In this document: positions 6,064 to 42,547 of the stretch, one piece after another
How the letters are laid out: every line of letters begins with the position of its first letter
Numbering within the stretch: the stretch's first letter is position 1
Source of the DNA: Bacteroidota bacterium
Lineage (GTDB): Bacteria > Bacteroidota > Bacteroidia > NS11-12g > UBA955
Reading direction: 5' to 3'
NCBI GenBank assembly: GCA_027490055.1
Contig: JAIXYV010000106.1
Coordinates: 30,802-94,801, forward strand
DNA: 64,000 nucleotides
The notes under the pieces: model-generated
What the model saw: the letters and a program-made list of their open reading frames with translations, nothing else
Told to the model about the DNA's origin: nothing
The model's database searches: none
Program-made: the position numbers and the translations under genes

Positions 6064-6075
6064 TTCTGTTGTGTT

Positions 6076-6816: not shown

Positions 6817-6951
6817 AATTATTTATTTAATGATGCAAATCAAGCACAAGCTTATGCATATCACAAACAAAAATAGGTGTTTGACAAGAAAAATAGGCGA
6901 ATAAACAAAAATAGCGGGTGAGTAACGTCAAATACTTAAAAAGCCATACTT

Positions 6952-7383: not shown

Positions 7384-7412
7384 ACGGGGCACTTAAGGAA
7401 ACAAAACTTTAG

Positions 7413-7420
7413 TATCTTTG
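7413..7420 (+). promoter_or_regulatory. -7 box TATCTTTG, 11 nt upstream of the bshA ATG
   Basis: The sequence matches TAnnTTTG. Confidence 0.4.
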
Positions 7421-7431
7421 TAAGCATTAAG

Positions 7432-8568: not shown

Positions 8569-8571
8569 ACG

Positions 8572-8598
8572 GCTTAATTGGGCCGCTTTTTTTACAGT
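8572..8598 (+). terminator. Weak hairpin plus T7 run after bshA
   Basis: In acggcttaattgggccgcttttttt the stem cggc/gccg is only 4 bp, so this is marginal. Confidence 0.3.
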
Positions 8599-8671
8599 AT
8601 TCTCATAAAAAGAAGACTTTTTATCTAAAAATCTTATTAATTTTTGATTTATAAGCCTGAATGGTTTTAAT

Positions 8672-11944: not shown

Positions 11945-11965
11945 ATTTTGTAAACAAAACTATAA

Positions 11966-12013
11966 TTGGCGTGTTTTAACAAGGGATTTAGGTTAAAGCA
12001 CGCCAATTTTTTT
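11966..12013 (+). terminator. Rho-independent terminator downstream of the BNR gene
   Basis: A 15-bp stem with one mismatch (ttggcgtgttttaac / gttaaagcacgccaa) has an 11-nt loop and is followed by a T7 run. Confidence 0.6.
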
Positions 12014-12075
12014 ATGGCTAAAAATGCCTTATTTTTACCCACTTAAATAAAGAATAAAATAATTTATAATATCAA

Positions 12076-23794: not shown

Positions 23795-23945
23795 AGCATT
23801 CTATTTACTTACTTTCAAGGCATTAAGGTTAGAAAAACCTTCAATATCATTTTTTTGTCATTTTAAGGGTTAAATACTAAAATAAATTTTTTTTATTTGA
23901 TAACTTGTTTATTTTTGGACCAAAATAATTATTAGAATTCGCATT

Positions 23946-26900
23946 ATGAAAAGATTAATTACAAATTTAAAGGCTCTGAAACTCATGCTAGCGGCCCCGT
24001 TATTGGGACTGTTTGGTATGACAGCCAGTGCTCAAGCGCCGTGGTGTGACGGATTTCACATGTACAACAACACGACTTACTACTCGTCGTCTAACTACAT
24101 CTTTGCATTAGATCAAATTAGAATCAGCAGTGGTGGTACTGTGTTGTTCAATGTTCCAGCAGATGGATTCAGCGGTGGTAGCACTTGCGGATCTGAATGG
24201 AGATTAGCTAACCCTACTTCAAGAGCGATCGACCTGACAGCAGGTAACTCTTACACAGTAGAGGCTAGTGGATCAAGTGGATCTTATGCTTACGGTGGAT
24301 CTATTGGTGTTTTCGTTGACTACAACAACGACAAAGACTTTTTAGATGCTGGTGAGTATCAAGGTGCATTCACAGTACCTGGTACTGTTCAGACTCCATC
24401 TACTTTAGGTTCAAGAACTTTTACAGTTCCTTGTAACATTACTCCAAGTGCAACTAGATTGCGTGTAGTTGGTAACTATTCTGGTTATCCAATGAACCAA
24501 TCTTATGGTTGTTCTACATGTAGTGGACCTCCTTATTATGGTGAGACTGTTGACTTTTCAATCAACTTAGTATTACCTACAAGTGTATCTGCTAACTTTA
24601 TCGCTCCAACTAACACTTGGGTTAAAGTAGTTAACAAATTCATCAACAGCAATCAGTCTGGTTACACAGAACATGCATGGGATGCTAACAACGATGGTTC
24701 TTATGAGCAAAGAAGCGTAGTTCCAAACTACAGCAATCCTCAGTTCATGTGGACTACTCCAGGTACTAAATGTGTTAAATTGAGATCTACTAACTGTTTA
24801 GGTAGAGATTCAATCGTAAAATGTTTCAACGTTCAATCTCCTACTGCAGTTCCTGTAGTGGATTTTGTTGCTGACAGAGTAACTATCGAGCAATACCAGT
24901 CAATGAGATTGTTTGACTTATCTACTAACGGTCCTTGGTCATGGACTTGGGATGTATATGATTCAACTACATATGCTTCATCAGGTTACTATCCAAACTT
25001 AACAGATGGTGATTTATATTCAGATCCATGGGGTAACGGTAACAATGAGTTCACTCAGAATCCTGAGTTTGCTTTTGACATCCCAGGTTGCTATACTATC
25101 GTAATGACTTGTAAGAACGACGTTGGTCCTTCTGCAACAAAAAGAAAAGTATGTTATGTAACAGTAACATTACCTACACAATATAACTTAGGTTATGGTA
25201 CTTATGGTCCTAACAACGATAACGTAGTTGGTAGCACTAGTGGTACTATCTTCGATGATGGTGGTCCAAATCTTAACTATGGTAACAACCAAGGTTTAGG
25301 TTCACGTTCATTCTTACAAATCACACCTTGTAATGCAAAGAAAATTGTATTAACAATGTCAAGATTGAAGTTCAAAGATGCTGGTGACAAATTAAGCGTT
25401 TGGGATGGTAAATCTCCAGGCGGTCCTGGTACTACATTACTTGCTACTTGGTCAGTTGGTGCAAAAGCGCCTCAGAAAGTAACTGCAACCAGCGGTAGCA
25501 TGTATTTATTATTTGAAGCTGATGCAGCTGGTGTAGACTCAGGTTATGCTGGTTCTTACACTTCAGAACTTGGCCCAGCTACTTTACCTAGTCCAGCATT
25601 CACACCTAACACTGTACCTAGCTACAACAGCACACCTGTTAAGTTCACCAACACTACTCAAAACATTGTGGGTGTACCTACATGGGAATGGACAATTGAT
25701 GGTGCTCAGGTTGCCAACAATACTAAAAAAGACTTCAACTACACCTTCTACACAGATGGTCAGTATGATGTTTGTTTAGAAATCAAATCTTGTGTTGGTA
25801 ACAACAAATCTTGCCAAAAGATTGATGTTATCACTCCAAACACTCAAACCAGCTTAGACTTTATCGCTACAAACCGTCGTCCGAACATCAACGTAGATTT
25901 CTCTACATTGATCCCGGTTTCAGATAATGCTAACAGATTCGAGTGGACAATCTTCCCGACTTCTTACACTTTAATGAACCCACCAGCTTCTCCATCTACT
26001 TACGGTGCAGGTTTCGTTAAATACAATGCAACTCCTGGTGATTCAATTCCAAAACCAAGACTGAAGTTTACAGCTCCTGGTTGTTACACAATCACTTTGA
26101 AAGCATACAATTCATTAGATCCTACCAATACTTCTAGAACAATTGTTAAAAACAAATTCATTTGCGCTCTAGACTATTGCAAACCATCTTCTTACATTTT
26201 AAGTTCAGACGTAGGAATCAACAGAGTACGTATTGTTGATGGAACTACTGACCTGATCAACAACTATTCTACTTCAGGTGACGTTGCTTACACTGATTAC
26301 AGTGCAACTGTAAAAGCTAACTTAACTTATGGTAAAACATACACTTTAGAAGTATCAAGAACTAGCAACGTTGACCCAGCTAACAGAAAAGGTTGGATTG
26401 ACTGGAACATCGACGGTGACTTTGATGATGCAGGTGAGCAGATTTTCTTCGAAACCAGCACATACAATCAAGTTTACACTACTACATTCACTGTTCCTGC
26501 ATTGTCAGCTTCATTTGAAGGTTTAACTAAAATGCGTATTGCAGCTAACTATAACAACGAAAGCACTACTGCTTGTGGTCCAATCACAGCTGGTGAATAC
26601 GAAGATTACGGTTTAGTATTAGCAAACGACAATACACCTCCAGTAATTACCTTAACAGGTAGCGATACTGTAAGAATCGAGGTAGGTTCTTCATACACTG
26701 ATGCTGGTGCAACTGCATTCGATGCTTCAGAAGGTAACATCACAGGTAACCTTGTAATGACTACTGACTTAGATGCAGCAGTAACAGGTTTATACACTGT
26801 TGAGTACAACGTAACTGACAAATCTGGTAACAAAGCAGTTCCTGCTATCCGTACCATCATTGTTGTTAACGACTTAACAAAACCAATCTTAACTCTGAAC

Positions 26901-28139
26901 CCAGGTGCTCCTGGTTGTATCGAGGCTGACAGAGACAATCTGCCATATGTTGATCCAGGTGCAACTGCAACTGACAACAAAGCGCCTTTCAATCTGACAT
27001 CTTCTATTGTAACTTCAGGTTCTGTTGATACAAGAACAATTGGCAACTATGTAATCACTTACTATGTACAAGACGTAGCTGGTAACTCTGTAACTAAAAC
27101 AAGAAACGTTTGTGTTGAAGATACCAAAAAGCCTACTATCTTATCTTTAGGTGATACTTCAGTTCAAATTGGTAGTGTTTGGTTAGATCAGACTTCAGTT
27201 GAAGACAGATATGACAACAACCCAGTATTAACTAAAGAGTGGGGCTTCAACGGTCCGGTTAACACTTTAGTAAGAAGAACTTACCCTGTAACCTACTATG
27301 CAGTAGATCAAAGCGGTAACCAAGCTACTCCAGTAGTGAGAAACTACAGAGTTGACGACTTCATTGCTCCAGTTATTAGCTTAAACACTTTTGACATTGT
27401 AAACCATGAAGTAAGAACTCCATACAATTCAGTTGCTGCTTCAGTAACTGATAACTACTACCCAGCTGGTCAAGTAAGTTTAGTGAAAATTTCTAGCAAC
27501 GTTAACCCTAACGTATTAGGAACTTACACTGAAGTATTTGAAGCTATCGACGGTTCTGGTAACGTTACAACTAAAACAAGAACTGTTATGGTTGTTGATA
27601 CAAAAGCTCCAAGAATCTGGGGTGAAATCATCCACGGTTGCGTAGGTGAAAACATCTGGCCAATGTGGGGTATTTCAACTACTGACAACTACTACAGTCC
27701 AGCTCAGTTGAAGCCACTTGTTGAGGTTGTTAACCAAAACGTAAATATTTGGGAAGAAGGTATCTACACTATCACTTACAGAGTAACTGATCCAAGTGGA
27801 AATACTTCTAACGAATTCACTAGAATGGTATACTTCACCTACTGGCCTAAATGTACTAACAGTACAGTATCAGTTGATGATTTAAAATCAGTAGAAGAAA
27901 GAGTAAGCGTATACCCTAACCCAAGTAACGGTATCGTAAACATCGACCTGCAAGGTGCATTAGTACAAACTGCAACACTTGAAGTTTACAATGCTATGGG
28001 TCAGTTAGTAGTAAGCAAAAACTACAACGAAGTAAGCGGTAAATTTGATGTAGACTTAAGCGGTAATGCAGCTGGTGTTTACACTATCAAGTTAATTGCT
28101 AACGGCGAAGTAGTAACTAAGCGCGTAGTACTTCAGTAA
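23946..28139 (+). CDS. T9SS cargo protein, paralog A (1397 aa): signal peptide, N-terminal GEVED-type module, CUB-like domain, second GEVED region, 5 Ig-like (DUF5011/HYR-type) repeats and a T9SS type A C-terminal sorting domain
   Basis: The sorting domain is ...VSVYPNPSNGIVNIDLQGALVQTATLEVYNAMGQLV...AGVYTIKLIANGEVVTKRVVLQ. GEVED-like motifs are present (GETVDFSINL, GEYEDYGLVL). The Ig-like repeats start PPVITLTGSDTVRIEVGSSYTDAGATAFDASEGNITG... Confidence 0.85.
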   Translation: MKRLITNLKALKLMLAAPLLGLFGMTASAQAPWCDGFHMYNNTTYYSSSNYIFALDQIRISSGGTVLFNVPADGFSGGSTCGSEWRLANPTSRAIDLTAGNSYTVEASGSSGSYAYGGSIGVFVDYNNDKDFLDAGEYQGAFTVPGTVQTPSTLGSRTFTVPCNITPSATRLRVVGNYSGYPMNQSYGCSTCSGPPYYGETVDFSINLVLPTSVSANFIAPTNTWVKVVNKFINSNQSGYTEHAWDANNDGSYEQRSVVPNYSNPQFMWTTPGTKCVKLRSTNCLGRDSIVKCFNVQSPTAVPVVDFVADRVTIEQYQSMRLFDLSTNGPWSWTWDVYDSTTYASSGYYPNLTDGDLYSDPWGNGNNEFTQNPEFAFDIPGCYTIVMTCKNDVGPSATKRKVCYVTVTLPTQYNLGYGTYGPNNDNVVGSTSGTIFDDGGPNLNYGNNQGLGSRSFLQITPCNAKKIVLTMSRLKFKDAGDKLSVWDGKSPGGPGTTLLATWSVGAKAPQKVTATSGSMYLLFEADAAGVDSGYAGSYTSELGPATLPSPAFTPNTVPSYNSTPVKFTNTTQNIVGVPTWEWTIDGAQVANNTKKDFNYTFYTDGQYDVCLEIKSCVGNNKSCQKIDVITPNTQTSLDFIATNRRPNINVDFSTLIPVSDNANRFEWTIFPTSYTLMNPPASPSTYGAGFVKYNATPGDSIPKPRLKFTAPGCYTITLKAYNSLDPTNTSRTIVKNKFICALDYCKPSSYILSSDVGINRVRIVDGTTDLINNYSTSGDVAYTDYSATVKANLTYGKTYTLEVSRTSNVDPANRKGWIDWNIDGDFDDAGEQIFFETSTYNQVYTTTFTVPALSASFEGLTKMRIAANYNNESTTACGPITAGEYEDYGLVLANDNTPPVITLTGSDTVRIEVGSSYTDAGATAFDASEGNITGNLVMTTDLDAAVTGLYTVEYNVTDKSGNKAVPAIRTIIVVNDLTKPILTLNPGAPGCIEADRDNLPYVDPGATATDNKAPFNLTSSIVTSGSVDTRTIGNYVITYYVQDVAGNSVTKTRNVCVEDTKKPTILSLGDTSVQIGSVWLDQTSVEDRYDNNPVLTKEWGFNGPVNTLVRRTYPVTYYAVDQSGNQATPVVRNYRVDDFIAPVISLNTFDIVNHEVRTPYNSVAASVTDNYYPAGQVSLVKISSNVNPNVLGTYTEVFEAIDGSGNVTTKTRTVMVVDTKAPRIWGEIIHGCVGENIWPMWGISTTDNYYSPAQLKPLVEVVNQNVNIWEEGIYTITYRVTDPSGNTSNEFTRMVYFTYWPKCTNSTVSVDDLKSVEERVSVYPNPSNGIVNIDLQGALVQTATLEVYNAMGQLVVSKNYNEVSGKFDVDLSGNAAGVYTIKLIANGEVVTKRVVLQ

Positions 28140-28160
28140 TTAATCAATCATTCATAATAA

Positions 28161-28192
28161 AGCGCACCGGCTCTGGCTGGTGCGCTTTTTTT
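28161..28192 (+). terminator. Rho-independent terminator after paralog A
   Basis: The stem gcgcacc...ggtgcgc (7 bp plus extension) is followed by a T7 run. Confidence 0.7.
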
Positions 28193-28480
28193 ATGCAGTC
28201 ATTTTCCTGTCATATTAGTGTTGGAACCAAGTCATTTTTGTTAATTTTGATTTTATTTATTAAAAATATTATTACATTTGAATATTAAATCAATTGTAAT
28301 TGAATGTTGAACTTGTGATTTGAATCAATCATTTTATTTATATTTATTCTAAATAAGATATCAAGGTTTTGAAAAACAATTCTCTATACAGCTCATTTAT
28401 TAATAATTTAACTTTTTGCAACTATGTGAAAAAAAATTATTAAGAAATTGATATTAAATTGCCAACCTATTAAAAAAAAT

Positions 28481-31400
28481 ATGAATAAGTTTACTAATTA
28501 CTACAATGAAAAGATGGGCTTTGCCCGGTACTTTGTACTGGCATTGTTTCTTCTTTTAGGAGTCAGTACTGCATCTGCTCAGTATTGTGCATCCAACGCA
28601 ACATCAACGGCAGACGAGGATATCGCCTCGGTTTATTTGAAAGGTAACACGGTAACATTAAACAATGTTTCTGCTGCTCCAACCTGTCAGACATACACCG
28701 ATTGGACTGCCTTAACACCTGTTGATTTATCTGCAGGAAGACAGTATTCAATTGTTATCACTGAAAGTACTTGTAACGGTCACTATACTTATGCATGTAA
28801 TGCATGGATTGACTACAACAAGAACAATACTTTTGAGTCTGGTGAGGCTGTAGCTCCAACTTCTCAATCTAAAAATGGTGCTAACGCTGTATTTACTTAC
28901 ACTTGGACAGTACCATGTAACATCACACCTGGAAACACCAGAATGAGAGTTGTTATGATTGAGGGTGCGGTTTCAAACCCTTCAAGTGCCTGCGGTACTT
29001 ATACCTGGGGAGAGACTGAAGATTACACAGTTAACTTACAGTTACCAACCTCAGTGAATGCCAACTTTATCGCACCAAGTTCAGCTTGGGTAAAGGCGGT
29101 AGTTAAATTTATCAATCAGAACCCAACAGGGTATATTTCACATTCTTGGAATGCCAACAACGATGCCACTATCGAGGCTCCGAATAGCGTAAACTTTAAT
29201 TATACATGGACTACTCCAGGTAACAAATGTGTTAAATTAAAGTCTACAAACTGTTTGGGCTCTGATTCAATTGTTAAGTGTTTGAATGTTGTTGCACCAA
29301 CTGCAGTGCCTGTTGCGGATTTTGTTGCTGACAGAGTAACAATTGAGCAATATGGTTCAATGAGATTATATGATTTATCATCTAATGGTCCTTGGGATTG
29401 GACATGGGATGTTTATGATTCAACTACTTATGCCTCTTCAGGTTTCTATCCAAGTTTAGCAACAGGTGAGCTTTATTCAGATCCATGGGGTAATGGAAAC
29501 AATGAATTCTCACAGAATCCTGAGTTCGCATTCGACTATCCTGGTTGTTATACTATTGTATTGACAAGTAAGAACGATGTTGGCCCTTCAGTTACTAAAA
29601 GAAAAGTTTGTTATATAACAGTAACATTACCTACTCAATACAACTTAGGTTACGGTACTTATGGTCCTAACAACGACAACGTAGTTGGTAGTTCAGCAGG
29701 TACAATATTTGATGATGGCGGTCCGGGTTTAAACTATGGTAACAACCAAGGTTTAGGTTCACGTTCATTCCTTCAGATCACCCCATGTAACGCTAAAAAG
29801 ATCACTTTGAAAATGACAACTTTGAAATTCAAAGATGCGGGTGATAAATTAAGAGTTTGGGATGGTAAGACTCCAGGTGGTCCTGGTACAACATTATTAG
29901 CTACCTGGACCATGGGTTCAAAAGCTCCAGCAGCAGTAGTTGCTACCAGCGGTAGCATGTATTTATTATTTGAAGCAGATGCTGCAGGTGTAGATTCAGG
30001 TTATGCTGGTTCTTATACTTCAGAACTTGGTCCAGCTACTGTACCAGTTCCAGCTTTCTCTCCAAATTCAGTACCTAGCTATAACAGCACGCCAATATTC
30101 TTTACTAACACTACTCAAAATATTGTTGGTGTTCCTACATGGGAATGGACAATTGATGGCGCTCAGGTTAATAATAATACTGGCAAAGATTTCCGTTATA
30201 CTTTCTATACTGATGGTCAGTATGAAGTATGTGCTGAGATCAAATCTTGTGTTGGTAACAATAAGACTTGTAAAACCATTGATGTAATCACACCGAATCA
30301 ACAAACAATGTTGGATTTCACTGCTTCAAGCAGAAGACCTAACATTAACGTAGATATCGTATCATTGATTCCTTCAAGCGATAATGCTAACAGATTTGAG
30401 TGGACAATCTTCCCGACTTCTTATACTTTAATGAACCCACCAGCTTCTCCATCTACTTATGGAACTGGTTTCGTTAAATACAATGCAACTCCTGGTGATT
30501 CAATTCCAAAACCAAGACTGAAGTTTAATTCACCTGGTTGTTATACAATCACTTTGAAAGCTTACAATTCATTGGATCCTACCAATACTACAAAAACAGT
30601 AGTAAAGAATAAATTCATCTGTGCTTTAGACTATTGTTTACCTGCTTCTTACATCTTAAGTACTGATGTTGGAATCAACAGAGTTCGTGTTGTTGATGGT
30701 ACAAATGACCTTATCAATAACTACACTACATCTGGTGATGTATCTTATACTGATTATAGCAGCACTGTAAAAGCTAATTTAACATACGGTAAATCTTATA
30801 CTATTGAAGTATCAAGAACTGGAAATGTTGACCCGGCTAACAGAAAAGCTTGGATTGACTGGAACATCGACGGTGACTTTGATGATGCAGGTGAGCAAAT
30901 CCTTACTGAGTCTAGCTCTTACAACCAGGTTTACAGCACTACATTTACAGTACCAGCATTATCTGCTTCGTTTGAAGGTTCAACAAGATTACGTGTTGCT
31001 ACTAATTATAACAACGAAAATACTACTGCTTGTGGACCGATTACAGCTGGTGAGTACGAAGATTACGGTATCGTTTTAGCGAATGACAACATGCCTCCGG
31101 TCATTACTTTATTAGGTAGTGATACAGTGAGAATCGAAGTTGGTTCTAACTATACTGACGCTGGTGCAACTGCCTATGATGCTTCAGAAGGTAATATCAG
31201 CAGCAGTTTAGTAATGACTACTGACTTAGATGCAGCGGTTACAGGTTTATACACTGTAGAGTACAATGTAACGGACAAATCTGGCAACAGAGCAGTTCCG
31301 GCTATTCGTACAATCATTGTAGTTAACGACTTAACTAAGCCAATCTTAACGCTTAACCCAGGAACTTCTGGTTGTATTGAAGCAAGAAGAGATAATCTTC

Positions 31401-32596
31401 CATACGTTGATCCAGGTGCAACTGCAACTGATAACAAAGCGCCATTCAATTTGAATTCTTCAATTGTTACTACTGGTACAGTTGATACAAGAACAATTGG
31501 CAACTATGTAATCACTTACTATGTGCAAGACGTAGCTGGTAACTCTGTAACAAAAACAAGAAACGTTTGTGTTGAAGATACCAAAGCTCCAATGGTAGAA
31601 GTTCTAGGTGATACTTCAATTCAGATCGGAAGTGTTTGGATTGATCAGACATCTGCAACTGATGCCTATGATTTGACTCCAACTCTTAACAAAACATGGT
31701 GGACAGTACCAGTTAATACTTTAATAAGAGCTACATACAGCGTAACTTATGAAGCAGTTGACGGTTCAGGTAATATTTCGAATCCAGCTACTGTAAGACA
31801 TTACAGAGTTGATGACTTCATTCCTCCTGTTATTAGTTTAAACACATTTGATATAGTTCAGCATGAGGTAAGAACGCCTTACAACTCTATTGCTGCAACT
31901 GTTTCTGATAACTACTATAGCTCAGGTCAGGTTTCAATCATCAGAAAATCAAGCAATGTTAATTACAATGTTTTAGGCACATATACCGAAGTATTCGAAG
32001 CTATCGATGGATCAGGTAACATTTCAACTAAAACCAGAACAGTTAAAGTGGTAGATACAAAATCTCCTACACTTTGGGGTCAGGTTATCCATGGTTGCGT
32101 TGGTGAAAACATCTGGCCAATGTGGGGTCTGTCAACTACTGACAACTACTACAGTCCAAGTCAGTTATTACCATTAGTAGAAGTGGTTAGTCAAAACGTA
32201 AACATTTGGGAAGAAGGTATCTACTCTATCACTTACAGAGTAACCGACCCAAGTGGTAATACATCTGAAGAGTTCACCAGATTGGCGTACTTCACTTACT
32301 GGCCAAAATGTTACAACAGTACAGTATCAGTTGATGATCTGAAATCTGTTGAAGAGAAAGTAAGCGTATACCCTAACCCAAGTAACGGTATCGTAAACAT
32401 CGACCTGCAAGGTGCATTAGCGCAAACTGCAACCCTTGAAGTTTACAATGCAATGGGTCAGCTGGTAGCAAGCAAAAACTACAGCGAAGTAAGCGGTAAA
32501 TTTGATGTAGACTTAAGAGGTAATGCAGCTGGTGTTTACACTATCAAGTTAATTGCTAACGGCGAAGTAGTAACTAAACGCGTAGTGCTTCAGTAA
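28481..32596 (+). CDS. T9SS cargo protein, paralog B (~1372 aa from MNKFTNYY; the ORF-track start at 28448 is probably spurious): same architecture as paralog A with a divergent N-terminal module
   Basis: The signal peptide is FVLALFLLLGVSTASAQ. From ~aa 200 onward it aligns with paralog A at ~85-90% identity. The C-terminal sorting domain is near-identical to A. Confidence 0.85.
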   Translation: MNKFTNYYNEKMGFARYFVLALFLLLGVSTASAQYCASNATSTADEDIASVYLKGNTVTLNNVSAAPTCQTYTDWTALTPVDLSAGRQYSIVITESTCNGHYTYACNAWIDYNKNNTFESGEAVAPTSQSKNGANAVFTYTWTVPCNITPGNTRMRVVMIEGAVSNPSSACGTYTWGETEDYTVNLQLPTSVNANFIAPSSAWVKAVVKFINQNPTGYISHSWNANNDATIEAPNSVNFNYTWTTPGNKCVKLKSTNCLGSDSIVKCLNVVAPTAVPVADFVADRVTIEQYGSMRLYDLSSNGPWDWTWDVYDSTTYASSGFYPSLATGELYSDPWGNGNNEFSQNPEFAFDYPGCYTIVLTSKNDVGPSVTKRKVCYITVTLPTQYNLGYGTYGPNNDNVVGSSAGTIFDDGGPGLNYGNNQGLGSRSFLQITPCNAKKITLKMTTLKFKDAGDKLRVWDGKTPGGPGTTLLATWTMGSKAPAAVVATSGSMYLLFEADAAGVDSGYAGSYTSELGPATVPVPAFSPNSVPSYNSTPIFFTNTTQNIVGVPTWEWTIDGAQVNNNTGKDFRYTFYTDGQYEVCAEIKSCVGNNKTCKTIDVITPNQQTMLDFTASSRRPNINVDIVSLIPSSDNANRFEWTIFPTSYTLMNPPASPSTYGTGFVKYNATPGDSIPKPRLKFNSPGCYTITLKAYNSLDPTNTTKTVVKNKFICALDYCLPASYILSTDVGINRVRVVDGTNDLINNYTTSGDVSYTDYSSTVKANLTYGKSYTIEVSRTGNVDPANRKAWIDWNIDGDFDDAGEQILTESSSYNQVYSTTFTVPALSASFEGSTRLRVATNYNNENTTACGPITAGEYEDYGIVLANDNMPPVITLLGSDTVRIEVGSNYTDAGATAYDASEGNISSSLVMTTDLDAAVTGLYTVEYNVTDKSGNRAVPAIRTIIVVNDLTKPILTLNPGTSGCIEARRDNLPYVDPGATATDNKAPFNLNSSIVTTGTVDTRTIGNYVITYYVQDVAGNSVTKTRNVCVEDTKAPMVEVLGDTSIQIGSVWIDQTSATDAYDLTPTLNKTWWTVPVNTLIRATYSVTYEAVDGSGNISNPATVRHYRVDDFIPPVISLNTFDIVQHEVRTPYNSIAATVSDNYYSSGQVSIIRKSSNVNYNVLGTYTEVFEAIDGSGNISTKTRTVKVVDTKSPTLWGQVIHGCVGENIWPMWGLSTTDNYYSPSQLLPLVEVVSQNVNIWEEGIYSITYRVTDPSGNTSEEFTRLAYFTYWPKCYNSTVSVDDLKSVEEKVSVYPNPSNGIVNIDLQGALAQTATLEVYNAMGQLVASKNYSEVSGKFDVDLRGNAAGVYTIKLIANGEVVTKRVVLQ

Positions 32597-32616
32597 TTAA
32601 TCTAATTTTATAATAG

Positions 32617-32648
32617 AAAAGCACCGGTTAAACGCCGGTGCTTTTTTT
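32617..32648 (+). terminator. Rho-independent terminator after paralog B
   Basis: In aaaagcaccgg-ttaaacg-ccggtgcttttttt the stem is 7-11 bp with a 7-nt loop and a T7 run. Confidence 0.75.
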
Positions 32649-32852
32649 ATGGAATCAATTTTTAACATGACATCGTTATCTCATGAATTGAAATAGATAT
32701 AAATATTAGTTTAAGCGCGGCATTCTTTGAAATCAGAGATTATCTCATGAATCCAAATTCAATAGTTTAAAGCCCATTAGACGACTTTAAATTATCAATC
32801 ATAGAAATTGTGGCAACACTACTTTAAATCGCCGCAAATCGCCAGAAAAACC

Positions 32853-33254
32853 TTAATCCAGGTCATCTATAATATCTGTTGGTTCATCAGAAGACCGGTA
32901 ACCATAAATACTAATAACCGTAGAATAGATAGCCATTACACCAATGCCTGCGGCTAATGCGATATTACCCAAAGGCCAATGCATAATTTTAAGAATAGCA
33001 CCTAGAACAATAGTAAAGCTTGCCAAAGGGCGAAGAATGTATATTAACTTCTTAACGGAATTGCTTAATCTATCTGATTTTAGTTTTTCAGATTCATTAA
33101 AAAATATTGACAATAAAAACCAAAGCAACAAGAAAGCACTGGGCAAAAGTCTGTATACCATTCCCAAAAAATAATTGCCATTATAATCCCATACCTGTTG
33201 TAAAGCAATCAGGAAGAATGCCAACCACAAAAGAATGGTTCTGAAATGTGTCAT
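32853..33254 (-). CDS. Hypothetical 4-TM membrane protein (133 aa), 3 nt downstream of glyA
   Basis: Four hydrophobic helices are visible, with no recognisable motif. Confidence 0.45.
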   Translation of the reverse strand: MTHFRTILLWLAFFLIALQQVWDYNGNYFLGMVYRLLPSAFLLLWFLLSIFFNESEKLKSDRLSNSVKKLIYILRPLASFTIVLGAILKIMHWPLGNIALAAGIGVMAIYSTVISIYGYRSSDEPTDIIDDLD

Positions 33255-34620: not shown

Positions 34621-37600
34621 TTGAAGAAAAAGTACTTTTCAAAAAACACTTTTTTTCTATTTTGTTCTTTGTTTATGGCATTGATTATCAATGCTCAGGG
34701 GAATAGATTGTCTTTTGTGGTTACCGGACCGAAGAATCTTTCCATCTGCGGGGTTAATGATTCAGCCTTTGTTGAAGCCTACAATATCTCGTCAGGACCA
34801 GTTAACAACATTACAATTAAACTAATTTTACCATCAGGCATCAATTATGTCAAAGGTTCTTTCTTTGGCACTGGTATTAGCGAAGCCAATGTTACAAATC
34901 TCAATCAACCTATTTTTAATGTTCCCAATTTATTATTAGCTAAGAATACAAAATTCAGGGTATTGCTAACGGCAGATTGCAACTTACTTACCTTTCTAAA
35001 TAACAGCAGTACGCCAACAGTAAGTTTGCGGGCAGATTATACGGGTAATTTTGATGTTGGCAGTTCAATACCGTATTCTGTAAGGGTGCCATCTGTGCAA
35101 TACGGCACTGTAACGAACCTATCATATACAGGTGATGTAGCTACCAAATTCACAAGAAGTATCACCATTGGAAATTATGGCAAAGGACCATTACGAGAGA
35201 TAAAACTTACCAGATATAATGGAAAGGATATTCAAACATTCTTTGTTAACAAAGGGAATACCGTATACAAGGGAGATACAGTAATAACCACATTTAACAC
35301 CAATCATTTCAAAACGGTAGGCAATCTTGACACATTTCTTGATCAGAATGAAACAATCACATTTACAGATTCCAATTTAATTAAAGCCTGTAAATTACTT
35401 AATACTAATTTCGAATTAAGTTGGGGTTGTGGTGGAAAATCCTGCCAGGTTAGTAAGTTATCAGGCTCTGCTTTAATCAGCAATAAAACACCAACATTAA
35501 AGGCAATTCCCTTGCCTGTTTATCCAACATGTTATAACAACAATACGTTTAAATCCGAAGTCCGTTTTGTGAATATCGGTAATATGCCTGCGATAGCTCC
35601 CCGACTTGCAATATCCTCCAACTATTACTATATGTTCTCGAGTTTTGATACTGGATCGATACGCATGAAAGTTGGTTTTAAGGGTACCTGGTACAAACCA
35701 ATCAAGGACAGCACAACGGGTTCATATAACTTAGGTTATTATGGCTGTATCGGTTTATATCCGATTGGATTATTCAGAGTTAAATGTCCGGATTTAAAAC
35801 CGAATGATACGGTCTATCTGACATGGAATACCATATCGTGTACACCACCCCCTTGTAGCAACGCCAGTATGGTGGTCAATAGCTGGGCTTATTATGCCGA
35901 TTTTAAAGATCAGTGTAAGAATCTGAAAACAGTTCCATGGGCCTGGGGAAAGGTTTACGACCAGCACTATTTTACGGGTTCTACTTTTAGTCCGACCGAC
36001 CTTATAGCCAATCAAACCGGCGAGTTCAGAACTTATATCAATTCAGCAAGTCTGTTAAATCGCAATTCATCTGCCTCCTACATAGTAGATATCATTTTAC
36101 CGAAGGGTCTCACTCACAGCAAGCAAAAGAAAGATTTCTATTTTATCAATTCAGATTTAACTGCCAACTGGAATCCAGACAGTATTGTTCAGAAAGGCGA
36201 TACTGTGAGGGCCTATTTTCCGCATCCTGTTCCAATCAATTTAACAGGTGCAGAATTGGTATATTATTTAAAAGCCGATTGTTCTAAGAGTGGTGCCAAT
36301 GGCAACCAAAACATTACTACTCAAATACGCTATATACCAGATAGAACCTGTGGAAGTAAAGAATGGATATTTTTGTATTGCCAGACACAGCAAATAAAAA
36401 TACATTGTATCAGTAATTGTGCTGGCGGTATGAAGTTCAGAAATTTTAAAGTACAAAGGATAAGTTTCGGAAGACCAGACAATGACAATGATGGAAAACC
36501 TGACGCCAGTGGTAGTTTAGATACATTAAGAGTAAGGGAAGAACGTTGCATTTATGGAGACACCATCCAGGCAGAGTATTTCGGAATAGTTAAACGGACT
36601 AGCTCGATAATTACCTGGAGAAATGCTTATATTGAAAGTACAATAACCAATGGCAGGAATCTTGACGTGGCGGGCATTCAATTATTGGTTTGGCGTCGTG
36701 GCGTAACCTTGTCTCTCAATTGTAATCAGATTAAAAGCTGGAAGACAGTGAGTGGTACAACCGCTACATTTAAAATTGATATCAGCACAGATTCAATGCC
36801 TAATTGTGTGTCTTCAGGATTTAGGTACAGCAATGATGATAGTGTGGTAGTGAAAGTAAAGTACAGGGTCAACGGTAATCTTGGTGCTACCATTCAGAAT
36901 TTAAATTTCAGCAATAGGTTTTATACCAGCAATGTCAATAATCCGACCAGCAATACCAACAAGTTTCAATGTGATACTTTTTCTGGCCAGATGATACTGG
37001 CAGGGTATTTTTTCACTACCTGTTGCAGTGATAATTATCAATTAAATTCGTGCGGTACTGTTAGCGTCAATAATTATTTTTATCTTGGTTTAGGCGGAAA
37101 CAGTTATGGCGGCAATAACTATTTTCCATATGAGTATCGAAATTTTGCAAAATTACGATCCATAAGATTTTATATGCCTGCCGGCATGAAAATGAAAAAC
37201 GCCTATATTGGCCAGTACCGTACAAGTGGTTCTAACAGGACCACATTAGAGACAAAAGATTCGTTGCGACCATTGAACATCAATGCGAATCCGATGGTCT
37301 TTGAAGTAGGCAAATTTTTCAAGGATTCGACAGGAGGTGTTATTAATCTGAGTGATGATGGTTTCCATGGCTATTTTGTAGCACAGATGGATCCTACATG
37401 CGAGATTCAGACTGGTGATCCTAACCTTATTAAATACGATTTTGTTTTTGAGCGCAAAGGCATATTTGGTAATACTTTAGATACGATAAGTTCAGGATTT
37501 ACAGACAAACTGATTTACAACAAACCTGTCTTTACTGTTAAACCCGTATCACCAACAATTTATGCGGCACAGGATACTGCAGAGTGGGAATTAGTATTCA

Positions 37601-40600
37601 CAAATTATTCTGCCAGTTTCAGTAATACCAACTCTTGGTTTGCGCCCGATAACAGTGGAGCTATTAAAGTGGTTCAGATCAGAGATGGCGGAACAAAAGA
37701 CACCTTGATGCCTTCAAAAAATGGGGTTTATAAGTTAGGAACAATACCTTTTAACACCACCCGAAAATTTAAAGTTAGGGCCATTTATAATTCTTGTAAG
37801 AAGGACAGTGTAATCTTGTATGCTGGCTGGAATTGCGCAGGCTATCCGAATGATTTAGCCAGTTATCCTTGCGTAAAAGAGCGAATACCATTGTATCTTG
37901 AACCACAGAACACACAGTATCAGGTGACATTAACAGATTCTGTCAGAGTGGCTGATTTATGTGCCTCTACACCCTACACCATGACCATAGAGAATATTGG
38001 TGCTACAGCGGGTTATTCTACAAAAGCCATCATTAATTTACCTATTGGAATGACAGTGGATCCTGGCTCCTGTTATATCCGTTATCCGCATAAGAATGCT
38101 AAGTCATCTTTATCTAATCCAGTATTAAAAAGTGGTACCACCTATGAGTGGAACTTATCTGGATTAAATACCACTATAGCCAATGGTTTTAAAGGGGTAA
38201 GCGATACTAATAAAAACAAAATAATCATCTATTTCAGAGTAAAAACTTCTTGTGATTATTCGAGTGGAAATTATATTCGAGCAAGTGCTTCCGGCAATAT
38301 AAAATGTGGCGATCCAATCATGGTTTATCCAGCCATTAGCAATCCATTAAACATTAAAGGTGTAACACGTCCATATTATACCTTACTGAAGGTTGAATCT
38401 GACTCTATTTTTCCTTGTGAAAAGCCAAGTAAAGTTCGAGTAAAAATTATTAATCTTGGTCCGGGTAAAACAGGCTCTGAAGACAAGTATCAAGCTATAT
38501 TGGTTCCAGGATTAAGCTACAACAGTAGTATGTATACAGCAAGCTATAACGCGCCTGTAGACAGTTTAACCACTACCAGAAACATTAACGGTGCAACAGA
38601 AGTAGAATTTAGTTTAAGAGATAGCATACAGCCTGGTGACAGTATGTATTTTGATTTCGGATTTAATAGCGATGGCAGATTTTTGAATTGCGGGACAGTT
38701 GACTTATACAGTCAGGCAGCAGTTAAACAAGAGGTAACTTGTGTATCCAATAATTCGAAGTGTAAAATCAATGTTGTTACCGGTAATAATTTACTGAAGC
38801 CGACTGTAGTAAAAGGGTCAGTTGGCTTTTCTGGTTTAAAAACTAAAATATTAAGTACAGCAAACGATTCAGAAATCCTATCGATGCAATACCGCATCAC
38901 GAATACCAGTTTCAGAATTGCATCGCCCAATACTATAGTTTATAAACTGGTCTATGATAAAAACAGTTCGGGTACAGTCAATTCTGGTGATATCGTTGCC
39001 TTTACAGATACGATTAAAACAGGCTTAGGTAAAAACAACTTTACAGATATTACTAAAACGATTAAAGTAAAAGCAGGACAGTCGTGTGCCCTATTTATTG
39101 CCTTAGATTCTGCCAGTTGCAGTTGTGGCTTTGCTTATGCAAAATTTCCGGTTCCGGGATTGCAGAATGCTGGCATAGATCAATCACTTTGTAGCGGTGA
39201 TACAATCAAGCTAGGTGTTACCAAAGTAAACGGTTACCGATATCTTTGGACCCCAGGAAGTGAGTTTATTTCTGATACAGTAGCTCAGCCAGTTGCTGTG
39301 ATGGAGAACACAGATAGTGCAGGAATTTTTAAGAATTATATTCTTACAACCTATAGAGGATTCTGCAATAGTAAAGACACTGTAAAAGTGGAGATTTATA
39401 AGTTACCAGCATTAAGATTACTGCAAAAAGACACATCAATTTGTGATGGAAATCAGGTTGTTTTAAAAGCAGTTTCTAAAGGAGGAACAGGTTTGCATAC
39501 CATCAAATGGAGTCCTGCTAAAACAGTGAAAGACAGCACAAAATTTACCACTTCCACCAAACCTTTAAAGACGCAAACGTATGTTGCCAGCATTGTAGAC
39601 GCTAAGCAATGCAAAGCAAAGGACAGTATGCGCATAGTGGTTTATCAGAATCCAATAGCAAAATTCACTTATCCTGAAACTTGTTTAAATTTACCATTGT
39701 TGTTAAGTGATAGCAGCAAAGTTAGTGGAGATACTATCAGTCTGCGAAAGTGGAACTTTAATGGTATTGATACCACGCAGATTAAAGACTGGTTGATAGA
39801 TTTACAAGGTAATTCAGATGCTTTAGTTTCCTTAACTATCAGAAGTGGATTTGGCTGTGAAGATACGATCGTTAAAACAGTGTATTTGAATCCATATGTT
39901 GTTGCAGATTTTTCGACCAAAGATGTATGTTTTGGAGACTCTGTAAAATTTGTCAATCTTAGCACACTATCAAAAGGCGTAATACAATCTAATATTTGGG
40001 ATTTCGGCGATGCTATAACCAGCGTAAAGACTCAAACCAAACATTTATACAATGCTGCAGACACTTATCAGGTAAAGCTTATCTCAATTAGTGATAAAAA
40101 TTGCAACGATACCATTGCAAAATCTGTAATTGTTTATCCGCGACCATCAACAGCATTTAGTATAAGTAATGTATGTCTTAAGGACAGTATTCATGCTTTT
40201 AATAGCTCAACAATTGTAAATGATTCTATTACCAGTCAGTGGTGGTATATTAATAAGGATACGATAAGTCAACAGCATTTAACATATTTATTGAGCTATG
40301 ATACATCGTATATTTTAACATTAAAGACATCAACAGCATTTGGCTGCAGAGACAGTTTAAGTAAATCAGTAGAGGTATACACAAATCCTAAAGCGCTATT
40401 TAATGTTAATCCTGTTTGTGAAGGCAAGAAGAGCACTGTTATCAGTAGTTCAAGCATTAGAAAAGGTGCTATTTCGTCCTACAATTATGCAGTTAGTGAT
40501 GGCAATAGTTTTACCAATCAGAATTTTGTCCATCAATTTGCCAAAGGCGATACTTTTGATATTAGATTAATTGTTACTTCTTCTAACAATTGCAGAGATA

Positions 40601-41883
40601 CATTAACTAAACAAGCCATAGTGTATCCTCGAATTGTACCTTCATTTAAGGTATCGGATACTTGTGTATCGGCAATGGCAGTGATAAGAGACCGGTCCAC
40701 ATTTGTCAATACCGGAATCAGTCGCTGGGTATACGATTTTGGTAATGGCGATTCGGCCTTTATCAGCAATCCATTTTATCAGTACTCAGCACCTGGCACT
40801 TATACTATAAGACAAACAGTTACCAGCAGAGAAGGATGCGTTTATGACACTACAGGTAAGGTGACTATTTATCCATTACCAAAACCTGATTTCAGAGATA
40901 CTAATAAGTGTGTCGATAACCAATTTAATTTCTTTTCAAAGTCGACCATAAGTTCGGGCACCATTAATACGTATAAATGGCATTTTGGGGACAATACCAA
41001 CTCTGTATTAAGAGATCCGGGTCATGTGTTTCCGGGAGCTGGCAACTATATAGTGAAGTTAATTGCGTCTAGTAATTTTGGCTGTGTCGATTCGATTGAA
41101 AAATCGATTGTAAGTTACCCTCCGGTACAGGTAAAATTTGGTGTTTACAATGTTTGTTTAGGAGACCCAATTGAATTTACCGATAGCAGTATCGTTCCGT
41201 CTTCGAGCATTAAACAGTACCAGTGGTGGTTTGGGGACAATGATACCTCTATGCAAAAGCAACCTTGGCACACCTATAAAACCGACGACACATTTAAAGT
41301 AAAACTGAGGATCACAACAGCTTATGATTGTGATTACGATAGCAGCACAACACTCACTGTTTATCCGGTGCCAACAGCAAATTTCAAGACCGATCCAGAT
41401 CAGGGTACCATAGTTAATCCAGAGATCCAGATTACAGATTTTAGTACTGGCGCAGATACCTTGATTTATGACTTAGGGGATGGTACTTTCTCAATGATGA
41501 GAAACCTTGTAAACAGTTATCCGGATAGTGGTACATTTACCTTGAGACAAACAGTATGGAACACCTTTGGTTGTCGGGATACCTTTATAAAAACAATTAC
41601 TATACGCTACTTATTCGTATTCAATACACCAACGGCATTTAGTCCAAATAACGATGGAATTAATGATGTATTTGCCCCTGGTGGGATAGGCTATACCAAA
41701 TATTCTATGTGGATTTATAACCGCTGGGGTGAAATGATCTATGAAACAACCGACGGTAAGGGTTGGGATGGTACCTATGCTGGAGAAGATGTCATGACGG
41801 ATGTCTATGCCGTTAGGTATAAAGTCAAAGATTTTAAGGGAAGGAATCACTATTACAGTGCTACCTTTACTTTGTTGAGATAG
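34621..41883 (+). CDS. Giant cell-surface protein (2420 aa): signal peptide, ~1500-aa Cys-rich N-terminal region of unknown fold, ~9 tandem PKD-type domains and a T9SS type B sorting domain
   Basis: The C-terminus ...FSPNNDGINDVFAPGG...IYNRWGEMIYET..GWDGTYAGEDVMTDVYAVRY is a type B sorting domain. Repeated ~85-aa units of the form ...F..GD....(N/S)....HxY...G.Y.V.L......C.D.. are PKD-like. Confidence 0.8.
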   Translation: MKKKYFSKNTFFLFCSLFMALIINAQGNRLSFVVTGPKNLSICGVNDSAFVEAYNISSGPVNNITIKLILPSGINYVKGSFFGTGISEANVTNLNQPIFNVPNLLLAKNTKFRVLLTADCNLLTFLNNSSTPTVSLRADYTGNFDVGSSIPYSVRVPSVQYGTVTNLSYTGDVATKFTRSITIGNYGKGPLREIKLTRYNGKDIQTFFVNKGNTVYKGDTVITTFNTNHFKTVGNLDTFLDQNETITFTDSNLIKACKLLNTNFELSWGCGGKSCQVSKLSGSALISNKTPTLKAIPLPVYPTCYNNNTFKSEVRFVNIGNMPAIAPRLAISSNYYYMFSSFDTGSIRMKVGFKGTWYKPIKDSTTGSYNLGYYGCIGLYPIGLFRVKCPDLKPNDTVYLTWNTISCTPPPCSNASMVVNSWAYYADFKDQCKNLKTVPWAWGKVYDQHYFTGSTFSPTDLIANQTGEFRTYINSASLLNRNSSASYIVDIILPKGLTHSKQKKDFYFINSDLTANWNPDSIVQKGDTVRAYFPHPVPINLTGAELVYYLKADCSKSGANGNQNITTQIRYIPDRTCGSKEWIFLYCQTQQIKIHCISNCAGGMKFRNFKVQRISFGRPDNDNDGKPDASGSLDTLRVREERCIYGDTIQAEYFGIVKRTSSIITWRNAYIESTITNGRNLDVAGIQLLVWRRGVTLSLNCNQIKSWKTVSGTTATFKIDISTDSMPNCVSSGFRYSNDDSVVVKVKYRVNGNLGATIQNLNFSNRFYTSNVNNPTSNTNKFQCDTFSGQMILAGYFFTTCCSDNYQLNSCGTVSVNNYFYLGLGGNSYGGNNYFPYEYRNFAKLRSIRFYMPAGMKMKNAYIGQYRTSGSNRTTLETKDSLRPLNINANPMVFEVGKFFKDSTGGVINLSDDGFHGYFVAQMDPTCEIQTGDPNLIKYDFVFERKGIFGNTLDTISSGFTDKLIYNKPVFTVKPVSPTIYAAQDTAEWELVFTNYSASFSNTNSWFAPDNSGAIKVVQIRDGGTKDTLMPSKNGVYKLGTIPFNTTRKFKVRAIYNSCKKDSVILYAGWNCAGYPNDLASYPCVKERIPLYLEPQNTQYQVTLTDSVRVADLCASTPYTMTIENIGATAGYSTKAIINLPIGMTVDPGSCYIRYPHKNAKSSLSNPVLKSGTTYEWNLSGLNTTIANGFKGVSDTNKNKIIIYFRVKTSCDYSSGNYIRASASGNIKCGDPIMVYPAISNPLNIKGVTRPYYTLLKVESDSIFPCEKPSKVRVKIINLGPGKTGSEDKYQAILVPGLSYNSSMYTASYNAPVDSLTTTRNINGATEVEFSLRDSIQPGDSMYFDFGFNSDGRFLNCGTVDLYSQAAVKQEVTCVSNNSKCKINVVTGNNLLKPTVVKGSVGFSGLKTKILSTANDSEILSMQYRITNTSFRIASPNTIVYKLVYDKNSSGTVNSGDIVAFTDTIKTGLGKNNFTDITKTIKVKAGQSCALFIALDSASCSCGFAYAKFPVPGLQNAGIDQSLCSGDTIKLGVTKVNGYRYLWTPGSEFISDTVAQPVAVMENTDSAGIFKNYILTTYRGFCNSKDTVKVEIYKLPALRLLQKDTSICDGNQVVLKAVSKGGTGLHTIKWSPAKTVKDSTKFTTSTKPLKTQTYVASIVDAKQCKAKDSMRIVVYQNPIAKFTYPETCLNLPLLLSDSSKVSGDTISLRKWNFNGIDTTQIKDWLIDLQGNSDALVSLTIRSGFGCEDTIVKTVYLNPYVVADFSTKDVCFGDSVKFVNLSTLSKGVIQSNIWDFGDAITSVKTQTKHLYNAADTYQVKLISISDKNCNDTIAKSVIVYPRPSTAFSISNVCLKDSIHAFNSSTIVNDSITSQWWYINKDTISQQHLTYLLSYDTSYILTLKTSTAFGCRDSLSKSVEVYTNPKALFNVNPVCEGKKSTVISSSSIRKGAISSYNYAVSDGNSFTNQNFVHQFAKGDTFDIRLIVTSSNNCRDTLTKQAIVYPRIVPSFKVSDTCVSAMAVIRDRSTFVNTGISRWVYDFGNGDSAFISNPFYQYSAPGTYTIRQTVTSREGCVYDTTGKVTIYPLPKPDFRDTNKCVDNQFNFFSKSTISSGTINTYKWHFGDNTNSVLRDPGHVFPGAGNYIVKLIASSNFGCVDSIEKSIVSYPPVQVKFGVYNVCLGDPIEFTDSSIVPSSSIKQYQWWFGDNDTSMQKQPWHTYKTDDTFKVKLRITTAYDCDYDSSTTLTVYPVPTANFKTDPDQGTIVNPEIQITDFSTGADTLIYDLGDGTFSMMRNLVNSYPDSGTFTLRQTVWNTFGCRDTFIKTITIRYLFVFNTPTAFSPNNDGINDVFAPGGIGYTKYSMWIYNRWGEMIYETTDGKGWDGTYAGEDVMTDVYAVRYKVKDFKGRNHYYSATFTLLR

Positions 41884-41914
41884 CAGCTCATTTTTCTATT
41901 TCACTTTAATATTG

Positions 41915-41922
41915 TATATTTG
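41915..41922 (+). promoter_or_regulatory. -7 box TATATTTG upstream of the small T9SS cargo gene
   Basis: The sequence matches TAnnTTTG. Confidence 0.4.
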
Positions 41923-41932
41923 CAATACAACA

Positions 41933-42547
41933 TTGAAAAGCAAATATTTAAAGATTAAGTTTTTAACTGTTTTTTTGTTTTGGGTATGTGCACTTAATGC
42001 ACAGTTTACACCAAAATTGAATCGTTTCAGTGCTCAGCACAGAGACGGAATAGTGTATCTCGACTGGGTGATGTCCAGTGGAAGTGTTTGCCTTGGAATT
42101 TCAATAGAGAAGAGTGAAGATTCCATCAATTTCAAAGAGATTGGAAGTATCAGTGGTTTTTGTGGCAATTTAACGAAGCCTATGTCTTATGCTTTTCAGG
42201 ATGAATCACCCTTACTTAATAAAAAAATATACTACCGTTTAAGCTATCCTGGATTAGGCCATTCTCACTATATCAGCATTGTTGTCATCGATGTCAAAAA
42301 GAACGATTATGAGGTAAATCCCAATCCTTCATCAGGCCTTTCAAAAATCAATTTTTACAATCCCAAAGGCGAATTGCATCATATAAAAGTACTTAATTTA
42401 TCAGGTGTTGAGGTATTAAAGTTAGAAACCACTAACGAAGTATTTGAGATAGAATCCGGCTTATTGGAAGCGGGTATTTATCAGTTTATGATCTTCAACG
42501 ATTCGCTCAGCAATGTTGTCAACGGACGCCTGATTATTGCTCAGTGA
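41933..42547 (+). CDS. Small secreted protein (~204 aa, TTG start) with a T9SS type A C-terminal sorting domain
   Basis: The signal peptide is KSKYLKIKFLTVFLFWVCALNA. The C-terminus ...VNPNPSSGLSKINF...GIYQFMIFNDSLSNVVNGRLIIAQ is a Por secretion tail. Confidence 0.65.
   Translation: MKSKYLKIKFLTVFLFWVCALNAQFTPKLNRFSAQHRDGIVYLDWVMSSGSVCLGISIEKSEDSINFKEIGSISGFCGNLTKPMSYAFQDESPLLNKKIYYRLSYPGLGHSHYISIVVIDVKKNDYEVNPNPSSGLSKINFYNPKGELHHIKVLNLSGVEVLKLETTNEVFEIESGLLEAGIYQFMIFNDSLSNVVNGRLIIAQ

Follow-up and report, generated by a model that had tools for sequence, protein, structure and literature searches.

A 64,000-nucleotide (nt) stretch of DNA from a Bacteroidota bacterium (contig JAIXYV010000106.1 of assembly GCA_027490055.1), referred to here as a whole as the window, carries two adjacent genes on the same strand, A and B, that encode large proteins of matching domain architecture. 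Their features are listed in Table 1. Both reading frames are intact, and the question raised by an earlier sequence-only reading of this locus, whether one copy might be a pseudogene, can be answered in the negative for both. The probable start of B is the ATG at 28481 (MNKF...), which we adopted because ATGAATAAGTTT is kept in relatives. Basic n-regions and hydrophobic cores are visible in the translations of both N-termini, from which we predict by eye signal peptides spanning amino acids (aa) 1-29 of A and 1-33 of B, each with cleavage between ASA and Q. An exact-sequence look-up of protein A returned no record.

Behind the predicted signal peptide, Pfam and NCBIfam searches gave the same order in both proteins: a GEVED head, a PKD-like domain, a CUB-like domain, two PKD domains, a second GEVED domain, five DUF5011 domains and a type A C-terminal sorting domain (CTD) of the type IX secretion system (T9SS). 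Profile searches thus confirm the architecture proposed in the sequence-only reading, apart from the three PKD-like domains per protein that it had overlooked. GEVED (PF20009) scored 44.8 bits in the head of A, 77.2 in the head of B and 66.5 in the internal copy (Pfam cut-off 24.4), and the internal GEVED of A aligns with both heads over its whole length. Each head, 160-190 aa long, is a single GEVED-type beta-sandwich and non-catalytic. DUF5011 (PF16403) matched five stretches within aa 903-1315 of A (E 7e-48) and four stretches in each protein at the whole-protein level; weaker HYR matches in both proteins overlap these stretches. At the extreme C-terminus, A and B scored 47.2 and 46.3 bits with TIGR04183 (cut-off 23) and 49.8 and 48.5 bits with PF18962, Por_Secre_tail (cut-off 27). 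The Pfam CUB model (PF00431) stayed below its gathering score in the window protein (14.0 vs 21.4 bits, E 0.063), and some homologues have a precomputed PF00431 match. A profile of the region built from 26 family members matched cubilin (1.9e-9), neuropilin (7.6e-5), MASP and enteropeptidase in the PDB, while the top Foldseek matches of its AlphaFold (AF2) model (pLDDT 83.6) were all CUB domains (Kremen, neuropilin, spermadhesin and TSG-6; probability 1.0, TM ~0.6). Since family profile and structure model both match CUB domains, the label "CUB-like" stands, on profile and fold. No toxin or enzyme domain was found by Pfam in A or B. We infer that the T9SS exports both as large, non-enzymatic proteins of several domains, destined for the cell surface or the extracellular space, and they may act as surface binding proteins.

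Table 1. Coordinates of genes A and B and of their features within the window (ORF, open reading frame; Ig, immunoglobulin; quartet counts are orthology-type vs within-genome-type sites).
Feature	Position	Strand	Description
Gene A	23946..28139	+	1397-aa predicted T9SS cargo protein; ORF call, translation, Pfam and NCBIfam
Gene B	28481..32596	+	1371-aa paralogue of A; mechanical ORF opens at TTG 28448
A-type head	24036..24590	+	aa 31-215, GEVED-type beta-sandwich; apparently spared by gene conversion
B-type head	28580..29050	+	Canonical GEVED (GETEDY), Pfam E 1.8e-21; ~33% aa identity to A head
First Ig/PKD-like domain of A	24591..24845	+	aa 216-300; still A-specific
CUB-like domain of A	25167..25589	+	aa 408-548, within PKD-CUB-PKD-PKD block aa 302-744
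Second, internal GEVED of A	26181..26651	+	Pfam E 4e-18
Five DUF5011/Bact_surface_Ig-like domains of A (stalk)	26652..27890	+	PF16403; divergent island ~27165-27340
T9SS type A sorting domain of A	27909..28136	+	Apparently the most recently homogenised segment
T9SS type A sorting domain of B	32366..32593	+	Pfam/NCBIfam matches, four-fold sites, within-genome clustering
Repeat unit copy 1	24750..28205	+	Matches 29207-32661, 81.6% over 3480 nt (blastn)
Repeat unit copy 2	29207..32661	+	Partner of 24750-28205 (blastn)
Putative recent conversion tract	27999..28139	+	Partner 32456-32596; quartet 0 vs 9; 59-nt exact run within
Candidate recent conversion tract	25968..26115	+	Partner 30425-30572; quartet 4 vs 8; 61-nt exact run
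Candidate recent conversion tract	26967..27114	+	Partner 31424-31571; quartet 3 vs 8; 44-nt exact run
Predicted intrinsic terminator of A	28159..28195	+	Hairpin 28159-28188, 13-bp stem and T-run; -25.9 kcal/mol, z -6.6
Predicted intrinsic terminator of B	32616..32649	+	Hairpin ~32616-32646, then T-run; -21.0 kcal/mol, z -6.3
Candidate Bacteroidota -7 box TATTTTTG upstream of A	23910..23917	+	Putative, by pattern match
Conserved non-coding element TTAAATTGCCAACCTATTA	28452..28470	+	11-29 nt before B start; nt-level conservation across genera

Similarity between A and B is distributed very unevenly along their length, as the sequence-only reading had claimed. Alignment columns 1-225 have 40% aa and 49.5% nt identity with saturated synonymous divergence (dS), and over aa 31-215 the aa identity is 33%. 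The figures that had been given for the remainder were somewhat too high. The central part, put at 85-90% identity, is 83% identical in aa and 79% in nt (dS ~0.9), and the last 101 codons, put at ~97% nt identity, are 92.7% identical in nt and 94% in aa (dS 0.26), with 98% nt identity reached in the last 60 nt only. Sliding identity revealed low-identity islands at ~27165-27340 and 27462-27520 of A, and an extra divergent island at the protein level lies at A aa ~1075-1135 (60% aa identity). DNA homology extends 66 nt beyond the stop codon and ends inside the terminator region; exact runs of 44-62 nt are shared along the pair (e.g., 59 nt at 28062-28120, 61 nt at 26010-26070 and 44 nt at 27024-27067). 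Blastn found no further copies of the repeat unit in the window. A "CTD cassette" common to all cargo genes in the window was considered and rejected, there being no other DNA match. Four-fold degenerate sites are heterogeneous along the window pair (chi-square p = 0.0027), with identities of 0.42-0.78 in the body and 0.91 in the sorting domain, so that uniform divergence is not seen. A maximum-run test at these sites was borderline for the window pair alone (p = 0.06), and our argument therefore rests on the heterogeneity test together with other genomes and the quartet test described below.

We built bootstrapped neighbour-joining trees on codon alignments of separate segments for four genomes with complete pairs (the window and three relatives, L001, L008 and L031). 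A split between all A copies and all B copies was recovered with 100% bootstrap support for aa 31-215 and 89% for aa 216-300, vs 0-1% in every segment after aa 300. Beyond that point, A clusters with the B of the same genome or lineage, with support of 86-100% in many segments. Within-genome pairs were supported at aa 901-990 in the window (100%) and L001 (93%), at aa 661-745 in L031 (100%), and in the sorting domain in all four genomes (100% in the window, L001 and L008, 87% in L031). Trees of 20 taxa agree with these results. The separation of A copies from B copies in the head indicates that the duplication predates these genera, and the sequence-only reading was right to call it old. In the segment at aa 216-300, paralogues share ~0.60-0.66 aa identity in all genomes vs 0.72-0.94 for orthologues; the edge of the region apparently spared by gene conversion would lie at aa ~270-300.

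The nt identity of the sorting domains within genomes is 0.94 in the window, 0.95 in L036, 1.00 in L038, 0.88 in L039, 0.97 in L001, 0.95 in L008 and 0.93 in L009, that is, 0.88-1.00 in seven of eight pairs, vs 0.69-0.79 between genus-level orthologues. At four-fold sites the CTDs of a pair are as similar as 0.91 in the window, 1.00 in L001 (52 consecutive matches, p < 0.0005) and 0.80 in L008, whereas orthologue identity is flat at 0.38-0.59; dS in the CTD is 0.10-0.22 within pairs vs 1.0-2.5 between orthologues. Because four-fold sites are homogenised within pairs only, the likeness of the CTDs is not due to selection on protein or RNA. These comparisons indicate that stalk and sorting domain are probably shared through concerted evolution by gene conversion. 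The sequence-only reading had proposed a duplication that keeps a common stalk and secretion signal. The sharing itself holds, but simple retention by conservation does not, as A and B cluster by genome after aa 300.

The database searched yielded ~90 full-length homologues, all from uncultured Bacteroidota and mainly from freshwater metagenomes (several of the relatives stem from the Lake Mendota series), and within it the exact domain order of A and B is limited to these relatives. NCBI annotates close homologues as "DUF5011 domain-containing protein," "GEVED domain-containing protein" or "PKD repeat protein." On one side the locus is flanked by Mg-chelatase-like ATPase, SIS, DsbD and glucosaminidase/LysM genes, a context kept among many metagenome-assembled genomes (MAGs) of freshwater Bacteroidia, and on the other by a GldL_N-like 133-aa ORF, SHMT and a 2420-aa PKD/CHU_C protein. 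Nucleotide identity of 68-89% between their flanking housekeeping genes and those of the window leads us to place these relatives at species to genus level. The survey of copy number and head variation that the sequence-only reading had called for returned either two genes or one at the locus, with varying types of A-family head. Both A and B are present in the window, L001, L008, L031, L036/L041 and L038, partial pairs in L002, L009, L021, L030 and L039, and one gene only, whose head is in each case of the A family, in L011 (7034-11257), L028 (7032-11222), L033/L034 (6438-10640 in L033) and L035 (10001-14173). Other genomes have additional paralogues with different head types at other loci. 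In L032, a more distant relative, two tandem A-like copies (5629-9807 and 10001-14182) are 98-100% nt identical throughout, including the heads, which could mean that they were duplicated very recently or that conversion has been complete; a B-like paralogue, P0041, appears to lie on the same contig. A tandem pair also occurs in the very distant relative L062 (9514-13680 and 14078-18130; ~36% aa identity). Its CTDs are not homogenised (0.49 nt identity), which suggests that the tandem arrangement recurs widely in the family while conversion does not.

Comparison of the A head with the B head gives an uninformative ratio of nonsynonymous to synonymous divergence (dN/dS, omega), and because dS between them is saturated, we used orthologue comparisons to assess selection on the heads. 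Orthologous A and B heads have omega values of 0.009-0.15, indicating purifying selection. Between the A heads of the window and L030, for instance, dN is 0.005 and dS 0.53 (omega 0.009), and omega is 0.05 between the B heads of the window and L029. Across genera, B heads retain 0.77-0.92 orthologue aa identity, with a dN of 0.09-0.16 vs 0.17-0.26 in their own stalk. To judge from these comparisons, the heads are not currently diversifying, and the A and B types are each kept across genera. The diversification of the N-terminal module proposed in the sequence-only reading is thus contradicted for present-day head evolution and partly supported, in that heads of the A family are modules open to replacement. 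The A-family head is more variable. It occurs as discrete types that are incongruent with the species tree, and in some lineages it evolves 1-8 times faster than the stalk. One case is L028, the closest relative by its flanks, whose stalk is 93% aa identical to that of A. Its head shares just 64% aa identity with that of A (dN 0.32 vs 0.039 for body/stalk) and is placed among heads from other single-copy loci, while its sorting domain falls with a B gene (95.5%). Such a three-way mosaic of head, stalk and CTD is consistent with the loss of one gene through unequal crossing-over within the homogenised 3′ part. Three further proteins (P0093-P0095, 925-938 aa) have only aa 302-744 of A in common with it, at 48-55% identity and starting exactly at aa 302; the PKD-CUB-PKD-PKD block is there fused to another stalk (PF24595/PF17210) and a type A sorting domain. 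As only that block is shared, it may be regarded as a mobile cassette, with aa ~300 as a recurrent junction.

At the island 27165-27340 / 31622-31800 in the third Ig-like domain, paralogue identity is 53-63% in nt, and aa identity is 0.53-0.54 for B between genera and 0.73-0.87 among A orthologues. It may represent an additional variable patch on the protein surface, specific to B.

We consider it probable that A and B are an ancient, syntenic tandem pair of T9SS cargo genes with two stable head types, the remainder of which evolves in concert by gene conversion. Such conversion, a non-reciprocal recombination between the copies, would overwrite the remaining 3.4 kb, including the CTD and the start of the terminator, in patches and repeatedly, with recency rising from 5′ to 3′ and the latest and most frequent events at the 3′ end. 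Long exact runs may seed RecA-type gene conversion. It would halt at aa ~270-300, either because the heads (~48% nt identity) are too divergent to pair or because convertants that lose a head type are selected out. The same homology would permit unequal crossing-over, leaving one or two genes per locus and A-family heads that are mosaic with respect to the stalk. After export by the T9SS, both proteins would be released or remain anchored at the cell surface. Their common PKD/CUB/Ig stalk would present two heads that may differ in their ligands, glycans or surfaces being the probable ones.

Several points weigh against this explanation. Conversion is deduced wholly from sequence comparison, mostly of MAGs and metagenome contigs in which paralogue chimeras are possible, and our neighbour-joining trees, with Jukes-Cantor (JC) distances, rest on short, partly saturated segments, several of which, in mid-gene, are weak either way. 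The process is not universal, since the most distant pairs show no homogenisation of the CTD (L031, 0.67; L062), and no core T9SS gene was seen within the 64-kb window. When the window pair was compared with L036, the closest complete pair, 495 quartet sites were of the orthology type vs 69 of the within-genome type. Most differences in the body of the window pair are common to L036, which places homogenisation of the body before the split from L036. Since that split, exchange appears to have affected the last ~140 nt and two short internal tracts, or about three recent tracts in all. P0012, a candidate natural convertant that speaks for the explanation, could itself be an assembly chimera. 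This B-type protein of a close relative follows P0014 almost exactly as far as aa ~990 and again at the very end, with an A-type tract at aa ~994-1300 (Ig domains 3-5) that is 100% identical to window A over aa 1081-1123.

Other explanations of the same pattern have to be considered. One old duplication could have been followed by ordinary divergence, in which purifying selection keeps the stalk and CTD while the head, under positive or relaxed selection, diversifies fast. The stalk is indeed strongly constrained (omega ~0.1), the head is the least similar part of A and B, and some A-family heads evolve at the elevated rates noted above. However, selection at the protein level cannot homogenise four-fold sites, nor can selection make paralogues cluster by genome; the dS between orthologous CTDs indicates that their sites are free to change, and orthologous heads are conserved rather than diversifying. 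The likeness to polymorphic toxins that accompanied this view in the sequence-only reading also finds no footing, as there is neither a toxin domain in A or B, the variable part being a non-catalytic GEVED sandwich, nor an immunity-like ORF in the spacer. We therefore regard ordinary divergence as very improbable. The within-genome similarity might also be suspected to stem from paralogues that were mis-assembled or collapsed in metagenome bins, given that many contigs break inside or beside these genes and that P0012 has no contig on record. Yet at least seven assemblies, made independently in different projects, show the pattern; their copies are mostly similar and not identical (0.88-0.97) with intact frames, and the boundary between head and stalk falls in the same place everywhere, which makes an artefact scarcely credible.

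Another alternative is module shuffling, which we think rather unlikely. Here the stalk would have been duplicated, or the genes replaced, in each lineage, with the old A and B heads grafted on near aa 300. That aa ~300 is a real junction is indicated by P0093-P0095, which continue into their other C-terminal stalk; the head type of L028 is at odds with its own stalk and with the species tree, and the two A-like copies of L032 resemble a fresh duplication. On the other hand, similarity within pairs is patchy (0.42-0.91 at four-fold sites), with segments backing different groupings, and in the window clade the CTD groups differently from the body. This suggests many short transfers at different times and not one graft, and a long-tract graft between two copies would in any case formally be gene conversion. 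It is also conceivable, though in our view unlikely, that homogenisation excluding the head is itself selected, A and B forming an obligate pair that needs a matched stalk and CTD and carries two fixed specificities. If so, the proteins may co-assemble via matched stalks or be processed and anchored through a common, lineage-specific T9SS sortase/PorV interface, and a lineage that loses B or replaces the A head would thereby switch, in ecological terms, to other binding targets.

Each gene has its own predicted terminator, a hairpin followed by a T-run, as the sequence-only reading had stated, and in most relatives a hairpin with a differing stem sequence occurs at the position of the A terminator. 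Its suggestion that each gene has its own promoter remains plausible, with candidate -7 boxes upstream of both. A scan for sigma-70 promoters gave no enrichment over shuffled sequences (42 vs 38); sigma-70 being the wrong model for Bacteroidota, we used the Bacteroidota -7 motif TAnnTTTG instead, which gave suggestive matches only, upstream of both genes. The TTAAATTGCCAACCTATTA element is kept at the nt level across genera yet read in different frames, and we therefore consider it non-coding. It is probably a promoter or 5′ leader element of B, possibly a -7 box. An Rfam scan of the window gave no match, and the 340-nt spacer between A and B contains no credible ORF, only chance ORFs of up to 31 aa, none of them immunity-like. 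These signals point to A and B likely being transcribed separately.

Directly downstream of B, the 133-aa ORF (32853-33254, minus strand) has a weak match to the GldL N-terminal domain (PF22827, E 2.5e-6) and occupies the same position in L001, L010, L011, L020, L026, L028, L029, L033 and L035. It would be a small paralogue of a domain of a T9SS motor protein, placed beside cargo genes. Three other proteins in the window, all on the plus strand, have T9SS sorting domains: the 2420-aa PKD-repeat protein (34621-41883) and an 834-aa protein (12076-14580), both of type B (CHU_C), and a 211-aa protein (41912-42547) with a weak type A domain. Elsewhere the window carries core chromosomal genes (GidA, PheS, IleRS, SHMT and DsbD).

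The closest analogue appears to be babA/babB, a pair of outer-membrane adhesin paralogues of Helicobacter pylori. In babA/babB and homA/homB, 3′ segments are closer within a strain than between strains through intragenomic recombination (Pride and Blaser, 2002; reviewed in PMC3960876), while the 5′, ligand-binding part is paralogue-specific and copy number and locus occupancy vary (PMC3960876). babA/babB thus resemble A and B in the concerted evolution of the 3′ part, the paralogue-specific 5′ part and the variable copy number. They differ in encoding autotransporter-like beta-barrel outer-membrane proteins at separate loci of a pathogen, within one species, whereas A and B are adjacent T9SS cargo genes of free-living freshwater Bacteroidia whose pattern extends across genera; moreover, RecA-dependent conversion and phase variation have been demonstrated for babA/babB, while A and B are known from sequence comparison. 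The GEVED domain (PF20009) was defined in the fibrillar adhesin CshA of Streptococcus gordonii (PMC10952558). There, as in A and B, GEVED lies by the distal binding region, a head sits on a repetitive stalk with a terminal anchor signal, and heads are shuffled onto stalks. CshA is, however, a Gram-positive LPXTG protein with a ligand-binding NR2 domain ahead of GEVED (PMC10952558). No NR2-like domain was detected in A or B, where the whole head is a GEVED-type sandwich. Like other T9SS cargo with a type A CTD (TIGR04183/PF18962), A and B combine a predicted signal peptide, whose cleavage would leave Gln as the first residue, a beta-rich multi-domain passenger and a CTD scoring above curated cut-offs. 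Among such cargo, the paralogues RgpA, Kgp and HagA of Porphyromonas gingivalis have near-identical C-terminal adhesin regions attributed to recombination; these are proteases or haemagglutinins encoded at separate loci, and no sequence relationship to A or B was seen, no search aimed at it having been made. We found no paper on gene conversion between T9SS cargo paralogues, within an incomplete coverage of the literature.

A and B show a known evolutionary pattern clearly but are a fairly ordinary example of it. They make plain, across several genomes, how a gradient of similarity along paralogous bacterial surface proteins can be misread: the seemingly conserved stalk would record recent recombination and reveal neither how old the duplication is nor how strong the constraint, and the divergent head would be the sole part that keeps the true, old history. 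In practice, contigs break at these genes, which affects annotation and MAG assembly; duplication dates based on dS would be wrong, and dN/dS scans between the paralogues unreliable. For the organisms themselves, the locus flags what appears to be a conserved two-head surface-protein system in abundant freshwater Bacteroidia.

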